A DNA stretch of 64,000 nt, from assembly GCF_057098645.1 (NCBI RefSeq), contig NZ_CM169472.1, one strand, 5' to 3'. The first letter of the stretch is position 1, and each line of letters starts with the position of its first letter. A program made the translations under genes and the position numbers. Below the pieces are notes generated by a model. The model made no database searches and was not told the origin of the DNA. It saw only the letters and a program-made list of their open reading frames with translations. This document shows, piece after piece, positions 41,314 through 43,485 of the stretch.

Positions 41314-41421
41314 CTACTCCCTCCGTTCCGGCAATCTAAAGTTAATCTTTTCCACATTAACAATATGGTGATTAATCCTGTCGATATCGACGGAGCTTTG
41401 TCCTTTTTCATTCACCGCATG
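41314..41421 (-). pseudogene. wcaM: wcaM 3' fragment (last 35 codons plus stop) separated from the rest of the gene by IS1
   Basis: Minus-strand translation from 41421: [35 protein letters not shown], continuing the reading frame that stops at the other IS1 boundary. Confidence 0.85.
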
Positions 41422-41476
41422 GGTGATGCTGCCAACTTACTGATTTAGTGTATGATGGTGTTTTTGAGGTGCTCCA

Positions 41477-41752
41477 GTGGCTTCTGTTTCTATCAGCTGT
41501 CCCTCCTGTTCAGCTACTGACGGGGTGGTGCGTAACGGCAAAAGCACTGCCGGACATCAGCGCTATCTCTGCTCTCACTGCCGTAAAACATGGCAACTGC
41601 AGTTCACTTACACCGCTTCTCAACCCGGTACGCACCAGAAAATCATTGATATGGCCATGAATGGCGTTGGATGCCGGGCAACCGCCCGCATTATGGGCGT
41701 TGGCCTCAACACGATTTTCCGCCATTTAAAAAACTCAGGCCGCAGTCGGTAA
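41477..41752 (+). CDS. insA: IS1 InsA protein
   Basis: 91-aa [40 protein letters not shown]... Confidence 0.9.
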
Positions 41753-42174
41753 CCTCGCGCATACAGCCGGGCAGTGACGTCATCGTCTGCGCGGAAATGG
41801 ACGAACAGTGGGGATACGTCGGGGCTAAATCGCGCCAGCGCTGGCTGTTTTACGCGTATGACAGGCTCCGGAAGACGGTTGTTGCGCACGTATTCGGTGA
41901 ACGCACTATGGCGACGCTGGGGCGTCTTATGAGCCTGCTGTCACCCTTTGACGTGGTGATATGGATGACGGATGGCTGGCCGCTGTATGAATCCCGCCTG
42001 AAGGGAAAGCTGCACGTAATCAGCAAGCGATATACGCAGCGAATTGAGCGGCATAACCTGAATCTGAGGCAGCACCTGGCACGGCTGGGACGGAAGTCGC
42101 TGTCGTTCTCAAAATCGGTGGAGCTGCATGACAAAGTCATCGGGCATTATCTGAACATAAAACACTATCAATAA
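41671..42174 (+). CDS. insB: IS1 InsB reading frame (expressed as InsAB' by -1 frameshift)
   Basis: 167-aa ORF overlapping the insA 3' end; slippery A-run ttaaaaaac at about 41735-41743. Confidence 0.85.
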
Positions 42175-42189
42175 GTTGGAGTCATTACC

Positions 42190-43485
42190 CACCGCATGAA
42201 CATTTGCAAGAGACAGCAGTGTTTCTTTTTTCGCCATAAACACTCCGCGAACGTCTTTGCGCATGTCAAAGTTCATACTCAATGCGGGTCCAACTGAGGA
42301 TTCCTGCATCACCTTGATATTTCGCATAAAAAGATGTTGCGGTTTGTTGTGTAACTCCAGCGACGCACGCTTCATCTCAATGTTAGTCAGTGCTACAAAG
42401 GAGAGAGCATTCCCGGCGGAGATTTGGATGCCGCGCAATTTATAAGCAAGATGGGTGTTATCCAGCTGAATATTATTCACTCGGAAATTTTGCGGTATCG
42501 AGAGATATTTGCCTTTAATTACCCCATAGCCGATTAACATCCCGGCGCTATTAATCATTTCAATATTATCAATCACAAAATTGTCACAACCGTAAATAGC
42601 GACCGTGGCGTTATCAATACCTGCTTTCTTACTGAAATCCGGCGTGATATTGCGGGCTTTGATATTACGAATAACAAAATGTTTACCATTTTTAACATGT
42701 ATCAACTGCCGACAATCCGATCCCGTGATATTTGCCACGACAAAGTTTTTCACTGCCTGGTCTTCCGGGTAGTTATTATCATAAGTACTCCCCGCAAGGC
42801 CTATGCCAATGCCCCAGTTGATTTTGCCATTAGTACAGTTGATGCGCTCGATGACATGGTCGGAGATCAAAATATCACGGTCGTTAATCGCCACGTTCCA
42901 TTCAATGGCGTCGCCCTGTAAGTCGCTGAACTTACAGTTGGTGATGTTGGCACCGATAATCTGGTTATGAAATCCCTGGCGTAAGATGGCGTAATTAGCG
43001 TGGCTAACGGTCAGGTTATCGATGGTCAGGTTGCGCATGACCCGTTTGTTTTTGCCGCCGATATAAATCTGCGTTACCGGACCAAAGCCGCTCATCGCCA
43101 GCCCTTTGATGGTGCAGTCAGAGCCTCGCACATCCAGGGTGATGTTATGCATACTGCCGCCCTCCTCCCCTGTCACCTGGCTGCCGTCCTGTAAGACAAA
43201 TCGCCCTCTGCCGTTGCCGCGCAGGCTTCCAAGGATGTGTAACGTTTTGCCGGGAGGGATGAAGATGCCGGTGTTGATATTGTCACAAACGAATCCAGCA
43301 GGCACGACGACCGTTTGCCCTTCGCTGAAGGCTTGTTTAAATGAGGCGATCCAGTCGTGAGGGTTGTAGTCGTTAATGTTAACGCTTTGTCGGGCGGGAA
43401 GTGCGCGAGCGAAAGGGGTATGGAGGAAGGCAAGCGCCGAGCTTGCCGTCAGGAAGGTGCGTCGGGAGAGTGTTTTAAATGGCAT
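42190..43485 (-). pseudogene. wcaM: wcaM 5' portion (432 codons) truncated by IS1; the ORF-track reading frame runs on into IS1 sequence
   Basis: ORF 42109..43485 begins [22 protein letters not shown] (Tat-like signal) and after ...SLANVHAV continues with IS1-encoded residues. Confidence 0.85.

Follow-up and report, generated by a model that had tools for sequence, protein, structure and literature searches.

The wcaM gene of Escherichia coli O145:H28 strains RM12761 and RM13516 is interrupted near its 3′ end by a full-length IS1 element, which is flanked by a perfect 9-bp duplication of its target and is very probably the product of a simple transposition, in the lineage of these strains, of a complete and apparently active copy. 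The stretch of DNA analysed here (64,000 nucleotides, hereafter the window) matches RM12761/RM13516 at 100%, and wcaM lies in it as the final gene of the wca/cps colanic-acid operon, between wcaL and galF (Table 1).

Table 1. Features of the interrupted wcaM gene, of the inserted IS1 and of the neighbouring genes (positions in the window).
Feature	Position	Strand	Evidence
JUMPstart ahead of the O145 O-antigen cluster, beyond galF	40007-40045	-	Rfam RF01707, 52.6 bits against a gathering score of 35
galF, next downstream gene	40246-41139	-	TIGR01105, 674 bits; RefSeq coordinates
Interrupted wcaM, whole gene including IS1	41314-43485	-	True gene ends
wcaM 3′ remnant (HAV, WcaM residues 433-464 and TAG), severed from the gene	41314-41421	-	Translation; RefSeq
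Target-site duplication, galF-side copy, CACCGCATG	41413-41421	.	Sequence reading and script check
Full-length IS1, 768 bp (IRL 41422-41444, IRR 42167-42189)	41422-42189	+	Length, inverted repeats, comparison with K-12 IS1A, RefSeq
insA, 91 aa, zinc-finger/HTH N-terminal part of the transposase	41477-41752	+	ORF; NF033558 transpos_IS1 positions 1-81; NF050000 IS1/IS1595 Zn domain
insB′ frame, catalytic part of the InsAB′ transposase	41671-42174	+	ORF; NF033558
A6C (AAAAAAC) programmed -1 frameshift site, insA to insB′	41728-41734	+	RefSeq 'programmed frameshift'
wcaM-frame read-through into IRR, 26 IS1-coded codons and a stop	42109-42189	-	ORF list, translation
Target-site duplication, wcaM-side copy, CACCGCATG	42190-42198	.	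Sequence reading and script check
wcaM 5′ part, codons 1-432, including the SRRTFL signal and the colanidase-homologous region (residues 163-348)	42190-43485	-	ORF, profile match, RefSeq
wcaL, intact, directly upstream of wcaM	43496-44716	-	TIGR04005, 879 bits, 1-406/406

The element stands between two identical copies of the nonamer CACCGCATG, as a preceding sequence-only reading of the window had stated. This nonamer occurs just twice in the 64-kb window, both strands considered, each time abutting an end of IS1, and the probability that the nine bases on one side would equal the nine on the other by chance is 4^-9, or about 4e-6. The left junction joins TTTTTCATTCACCGCATG to GGTGATGCTGCCAAC and the right junction joins GGAGTCATTACC to CACCGCATGAACATTTGC, while the sequence of the empty site is TTTTTCATTCACCGCATGAACATTTGC. 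On the minus strand both copies of the duplication read CAT GCG GTG in the wcaM frame and encode His-Ala-Val, and past IS1 this frame continues for 35 codons (HAV and 32 more) to a TAG at 41316-41314; translation agreed with the earlier reading on both points. The excision of 41422-42198 proposed in that reading was run in silico and yielded 1395 nt, corresponding to the expected 464 codons and a stop. The reconstructed ORF is WcaM, with matches to NF007517 of 1024 bits (cut-off 808, positions 1-464/464) and to TIGR04004 of 972 bits (cut-off 795, end to end), and is 98% identical to the common E. coli WcaM. The reconstruction is therefore a full-length member of the WcaM family, whereas the gene of the strain itself is interrupted and its product lacks residues 433-464.

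The IS1 transposase made a staggered cut at CACCGCATG, which covers wcaM codons 430-432, and repair duplicated the nine bases. The wcaM frame now enters the right inverted repeat of IS1, remains open for 26 codons and stops, giving a 458-aa product devoid of residues 433-464. Two observations in related genomes bear on these events. The nonamer is present as a single copy at the empty site of relatives and was thus single before the insertion; furthermore, both flanks are contiguous at the empty sites found elsewhere, which points to a simple insertion not accompanied by rearrangement.

The inserted element has the hallmarks of IS1. Its ends were judged against imperfect terminal repeats of about 23 bp starting with GGTRATG, in an element of about 768 bp; it starts with GGTGATGCTGCCAACTTACTGAT and its last bases are GGTAATGACTCCAACTTATTGAT in reverse complement, and 18 of 23 positions agree between the two terminal inverted repeats. 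In the 64-kb window the 23-mer of the left end occurs once, where none would be expected by chance. A -1 slip at the A6C site gives an unbroken InsAB′ of 232 aa, and the insB′ frame matches NF033558 with 143.8 bits (cut-off 100) over profile positions 76-199. Only eight of the 768 positions differ from K-12 IS1A (99.0% identity). The sequence features by which membership of IS1 was assessed were all found, namely the length and ends, the insA-insB′ organization with its A6C site, the 9-bp duplication and near-identity to the reference. Length, ends, frameshift and 9-bp duplication are the same as those of K-12 IS1A and IS1B, as is the insertion into DNA of lower GC content; the eight base changes alone separate the copy from IS1A, RefSeq labels it as of the IS1B type and there is nothing unusual about it. 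With every coding and end sequence intact, the copy in wcaM is apparently still active. IS1 has expanded in the RM13516 lineage, four copies being recorded in RM13516 against two in RM13514 (Cooper 2014, Table S4).

A BLAST search located IS1 at four places in the chromosome, and a multi-copy element of this kind could in principle have been put into wcaM by mis-assembly of a repeat. Such an artefact is exceedingly improbable, given that identical junctions are present in two separately deposited complete genomes, of a food and a human isolate, and that a perfect 9-bp duplication surrounds a complete element, which mis-assembly would not make. The original annotation also had WcaM in RM13514 and not in RM13516, the protein (ECRM13514_2764) being included among the RM13514-specific ones in Table S1 of the RM13516 genome paper (Cooper 2014).

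The insertion had been described as in-frame, which is arithmetically true: IS1 and the duplication add 768 + 9 = 777 nucleotides, or 3 × 259. The same sum applies whenever IS1 inserts with a 9-bp duplication; all such insertions keep the downstream frame, and the description carries no information. Here, frame preservation has no functional meaning, because the wcaM frame hits a stop 26 codons into IS1. The reading frame of wcaM in RM12761/RM13516 is thus not intact, with a break after codon 432, and the truncation of WcaM asserted by the sequence-only reading takes the form of a fusion ORF (42109-43485) encoding 458 aa, in which 26 IS1-coded residues replace native residues 433-464.

The importance of the lost tail was evaluated on an alignment of 32 WcaM sequences (75-98% identity to the query) drawn from the genera Escherichia, Citrobacter, Salmonella, Enterobacter, Kosakonia and Leclercia. 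Of the tail positions, nine are invariant in all 32 (N433, E434, G436, S439, I442, D443, N456, F457 and P460) and seven further positions are at least 90% conserved. Column identity averages 0.82 over residues 433-460, compared with 0.85 over the mature protein, so that, as judged from the alignment, this part of the tail is conserved like the rest of WcaM. The twin-arginine signal SRRTFL is also preserved, R8 and R9 being invariant in the alignment, and WcaM is among the listed Tat substrates in Salmonella (PMC8262268). No family for WcaM was found in the Pfam release searched; a newer, precomputed PF27800 exists. An AlphaFold2 model built on the 32-protein alignment is a right-handed β-helix (mean pLDDT 81.7, pTM 0.83), in which the break falls directly after the strand 423-432 and the lost tail contributes the strands 440-442 and 448-453, with block pLDDT values of 95, 69 and 83 over residues 431-460.

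The fusion protein keeps 93% of WcaM (432 of 464 residues), so that neither the signal peptide nor the core homologous to the colanidase (residues 163-348) is lost, and residues 461-464 are poorly conserved among homologues, all of which would suit a product that is still functional and an insertion without phenotype. This reading is nevertheless unlikely: the lost residues 433-460 are conserved and modelled as β-helix strands, the length of nearly all of the 120 homologues among the matches listed lies between 461 and 471 aa, with a few shorter singletons, and the foreign tail of 26 residues added to the protein is largely hydrophobic. In addition, the Tat system exports only folded proteins. 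Since the conserved end of the β-helix is lost, 26 foreign residues are added and Tat export needs folding, poor export or activity would be expected, and the truncated WcaM is most likely misfolded, not exported and non-functional. On sequence and model together, the insertion is likely to have caused a loss or severe impairment of WcaM function, equivalent to a null allele or a strong hypomorph.

What would be lost with WcaM is suggested by its relatives. Sequence comparison with the PDB detected a single relative, the colanidase tailspike gp150 of phage φ92 (PDB entry 6e0v), which matches WcaM residues 163-348 (phmmer E value 2.5e-24); the same entry ranks first by fold as well (Foldseek E value 5.9e-11, TM score 0.71), followed by polysaccharide lyases and hydrolases, other tailspikes and V. 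cholerae RbmB. WcaM thus has a β-helix fold related to that of a known colanic-acid-degrading enzyme, and the name 'colanidase' for φ92 gp150 is confirmed in the literature (PMC11640937). The two proteins share a right-handed β-helix and are homologous over WcaM residues 163-348, but gp150 is a 626-aa phage tailspike, whereas WcaM is a 464-aa Tat-exported chromosomal protein. From sequence and model, WcaM looks like a putative periplasmic enzyme that cleaves colanic acid, rather than a synthetic one. Since the other wca genes are untouched and WcaM is depolymerase-like, the insertion is expected to affect the processing or quality of colanic acid and not the capacity for its polymerization. 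No biochemical data on WcaM were found in the literature searched. According to an NCBI annotation note, Salmonella requires WcaM to form biofilms on HEp-2 cells and on chicken intestinal tissue.

The consequences for the neighbouring genes appear to be limited. As had been pointed out in the sequence-only reading, IS1 has come to lie between the colanic-acid operon on one side and galF and the O-antigen promoter region on the other. Its own genes run opposite to wcaM and galF. Because wcaM closes the operon and wcaL is intact, none of the other wca genes is subject to a polar effect. The start of galF is 282 bp from the left end of IS1 and the wcaM-galF spacer is wholly intact; we infer that galF and the O-antigen cluster retain their own upstream DNA. 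A consensus scan of the IS1/flank junction found no outward σ70-like promoter. The reverse complement of IRL offers TTGGCA, a 17-bp spacing and AATGAA, a candidate that was rejected for its poor -10 element, in which the final T is absent. A consensus scan of the minus strand between wcaM and galF likewise found no terminator-like site. IS1 is polar in either orientation, and for this reason a loss of read-through from wca into galF is possible; the blocking of any such transcription from the wca promoter is the sole plausible regulatory effect of the insertion. Synthesis of the O antigen is not abolished, since the strain was typed as O145.

The site of the insertion is in keeping with the habits of the element. 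IS1 prefers AT-rich DNA, and the target stretch fits this preference with a GC content of 38-46%, against 50-63% for most of the wca cluster. Surface-polysaccharide genes are interrupted by insertion sequences in other E. coli strains too, namely wbbL of K-12 by IS5 and the O-antigen cluster of strain B by IS1. Among 5,426 complete genomes, seven carry IS1 beside a near-complete wcaM in the same orientation as RM13516, and in at least 13 genomes IS1 lies beyond galF in the opposite orientation. In 027_SK3 and ABW_S38 the element is in the wcaM-galF spacer with a 9-bp duplication, GCCGCTTCG (equivalent to 41243-41251 of the window), and wcaM is intact; TST3 and TBE6 have the same wcaM-side junction as these two genomes, galF and the O-antigen cluster being deleted up to gnd. 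IS1 is also near wcaM in KE51 and 1919D62, and in AR_0081 a divergent IS1 lies within wcaM and the remaining cluster is deleted. The latter genome resembles the variant-O89 strains, in which a partial, IS1-truncated wcaM adjoins IS1 (PMC6128206). The likeness to RM13516 is that an insertion sequence inactivates a gene of the colanic-acid/O-antigen locus in one lineage; in contrast, the RM13516 insertion is clean, since both flanks and the duplication remain and only the last 32 codons are lost, whereas in the O89 variants and in AR_0081 the neighbouring DNA is deleted or rearranged. Some IS1 matches in the BLAST search apparently reached 20-27 bases into the wcaM flank and were dismissed as an artefact of ranking the best of about 77,000 IS1 flanks.

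Independent landings of IS1 at the wcaM-galF-O-antigen boundary in other lineages might be taken as a sign that the insertion in RM12761/RM13516 was selected, either by removing a colanic-acid-degrading enzyme or by blocking read-through from wca into galF, with an altered surface polysaccharide favouring, for example, persistence in dairy or farm settings. The homology of WcaM to a colanidase makes it plausible that its loss could change the length or release of the polymer, and read-through is conceivable in view of the lack of a terminator-like site between wcaM and galF. Selection of this kind is, however, very unlikely: a single clone carries the insertion, IS1 beside wcaM is rare (the seven genomes given above), the other events are elsewhere and mostly leave wcaM intact, as the preference for lower-GC targets would have it, the strain is still typed as O145 and makes its O antigen, and no phenotype was reported in the literature searched. 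That the insertions recur but are rare, fall at other sites and mostly spare wcaM points to a preference of IS1 for this target and not to selection against WcaM. A more specific proposal would cast WcaM as the cell's own periplasmic colanidase, comparable to AlgL, BcsZ and PslG, whose loss to IS1 was adaptive in the outbreak clone, the hits at the boundary reflecting the same selection. This proposal is very unlikely; if it were true, adaptive loss of WcaM would alter the chain length or release of colanic acid, with an effect on persistence in food or on surfaces.

The simple transposition preferred here is restricted to few genomes. A 300-bp query across the left junction was matched in one piece at 100% only by RM12761 and RM13516, two of 5,426 complete E. 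coli genomes. The empty site, searched with 300 bp per side and one copy of the 9-mer, is uninterrupted and 100% identical over 600 bp in 22 other genomes, which comprise the listed O145 strains and close matches, RM13514 and RM12581 among them. This distribution indicates that the insertion is lineage-specific and recent. The earlier reading had also called it recent, which stands, but had taken the intact duplication as proof; this is weak evidence of recency, because nine bases persist unchanged for a very long time. RM13516 belongs to ST6130 within the ST137 branch, whereas every further complete O145:H28 genome typed in the same study is ST32, and the split between ST6130 and ST32 was estimated at about 1786 (PMC7067040). 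On sequence comparison, the complete genomes date the insertion only to after this split, which does not by itself place its origin within the outbreak clone. With a 21.8-kb flanking query the nearest genomes were about one SNP apart, the region being too conserved to rank the empty-site relatives. [quoted passage not shown] An exact-sequence look-up returned no record of the 458-aa fusion protein, as expected given that short-read contigs break at IS1 and that PGAP calls a pseudogene.

The insertion is an ordinary strain-specific IS1 pseudogene that is already annotated in public records. In RefSeq, wcaM is a pseudogene with a missing C-terminus, the element is an IS1-like element IS1B family transposase with a programmed frameshift, and the 108-bp remnant is an incomplete 'hypothetical protein' pseudogene. 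wcaM goes unmentioned in the main text of the RM13516 genome paper (Cooper 2014), and no paper discussing the IS1-wcaM insertion or a colanic-acid phenotype of RM12761/RM13516 was found in the literature searched.

The finding therefore has little import beyond the strain, as another lineage-specific pseudogene made by an insertion sequence at a surface-polysaccharide locus of E. coli. Within these bounds, the two junctions provide a clone-specific marker for the lineage of the Belgian 2007 O145:H28 outbreak, and RM13516 and RM12761 are natural wcaM mutants with all of the other wca genes intact, which could be used to probe the role of WcaM. The link between WcaM and the φ92 colanidase is the more interesting lead, and it concerns WcaM in general rather than the insertion.

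Cooper et al. (2014; PMC3893438) had already recorded the loss of WcaM from RM13516 but never discussed it: supplementary Table S1 of that study enters WcaM as an RM13514-specific gene. Supplementary Table S4 gives an IS1 copy number of four in RM13516 versus two in RM13514.

In other complete E. coli genomes, IS1 is found at several further positions around wcaM and galF. The copy in the wcaM–galF spacer of 027_SK3 and ABW_S38 shares the orientation of the IS1 that interrupts wcaM in the window, is flanked by the 9 bp duplication GCCGCTTCG and is a distinct copy, with five mismatches to the window element. 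An identical wcaM-side junction occurs in TST3 and TBE6, isolates from the Thai pig chain, where it is fused straight to gnd-adjacent DNA, and galF and the entire O-antigen cluster have therefore been deleted. In AR_0081 a divergent IS1 lies within wcaM itself and the remainder of the colanic-acid cluster is replaced as far as yegH, an arrangement resembling that of the variant-O89/group 1 capsule strains, in which a partial wcaM adjoins IS1 (PMC6128206). Just past galF, near the start of the O-antigen cluster, at least 13 complete genomes among the matches listed (H178–H191) carry IS1 in the orientation opposite to that of the window copy. The low-GC zone spanning wcaM, galF and JUMPstart seems to accumulate IS1 insertions.

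Locations of features in the window and of IS1 copies in other genomes
Feature	Location	Strand	Details
O145 O-antigen gene cluster	window 24949-39921	-	
galF, mechanical ORF	window 40246-41151	-	GTG start at 41151, 301 aa
Reconstructed WcaM	window 42190-43485 + 41314-41421		
IS1 in wcaM–galF spacer	L003 1500-2285 (027_SK3; ABW_S38 likewise)		window-equivalent 41243-41251
IS1	L002 1501-2268 (TST3; TBE6 likewise)		
Divergent IS1	L004 2081-2848 (AR_0081)		left end GGTAATGGTGCC; within wcaM, ~window 42629
algC RNA motif	window 50449-50498	-	Rfam, 78 bits
His operon leader	window 13204-13327	+	Rfam, 130 bits
sRNA STnc240	window 10390-10464	-	Rfam, 68 bits

In the O145 O-antigen cluster, the genes that RefSeq names directly downstream of galF are neuB (N-acetylneuraminate synthase) and those for an acetyltransferase and a protein with a cytidylyltransferase domain; the GC content falls to 26–35% at window 39800–40000. 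The start of galF itself is placed by both RefSeq and the GalF models at the ATG at 41139 (297 aa, MTNLKAV...), a trivial difference from the GTG of the mechanical ORF. The three RNA elements all score above the Rfam gathering score, and the algC motif lies within the wca cluster, immediately upstream of a 472-aa ORF (49074–50492).

WcaM is homologous over residues 163–348 to gp150, the colanidase tailspike of phage phi92 (PDB entry 6e0v; phmmer, E = 2.5e-24), which is also its top Foldseek match (TM 0.71), a connection not found in the literature searched. Together with the twin-arginine signal present in WcaM, this homology suggests that the protein depolymerises colanic acid in the periplasm and does not take part in its biosynthesis.
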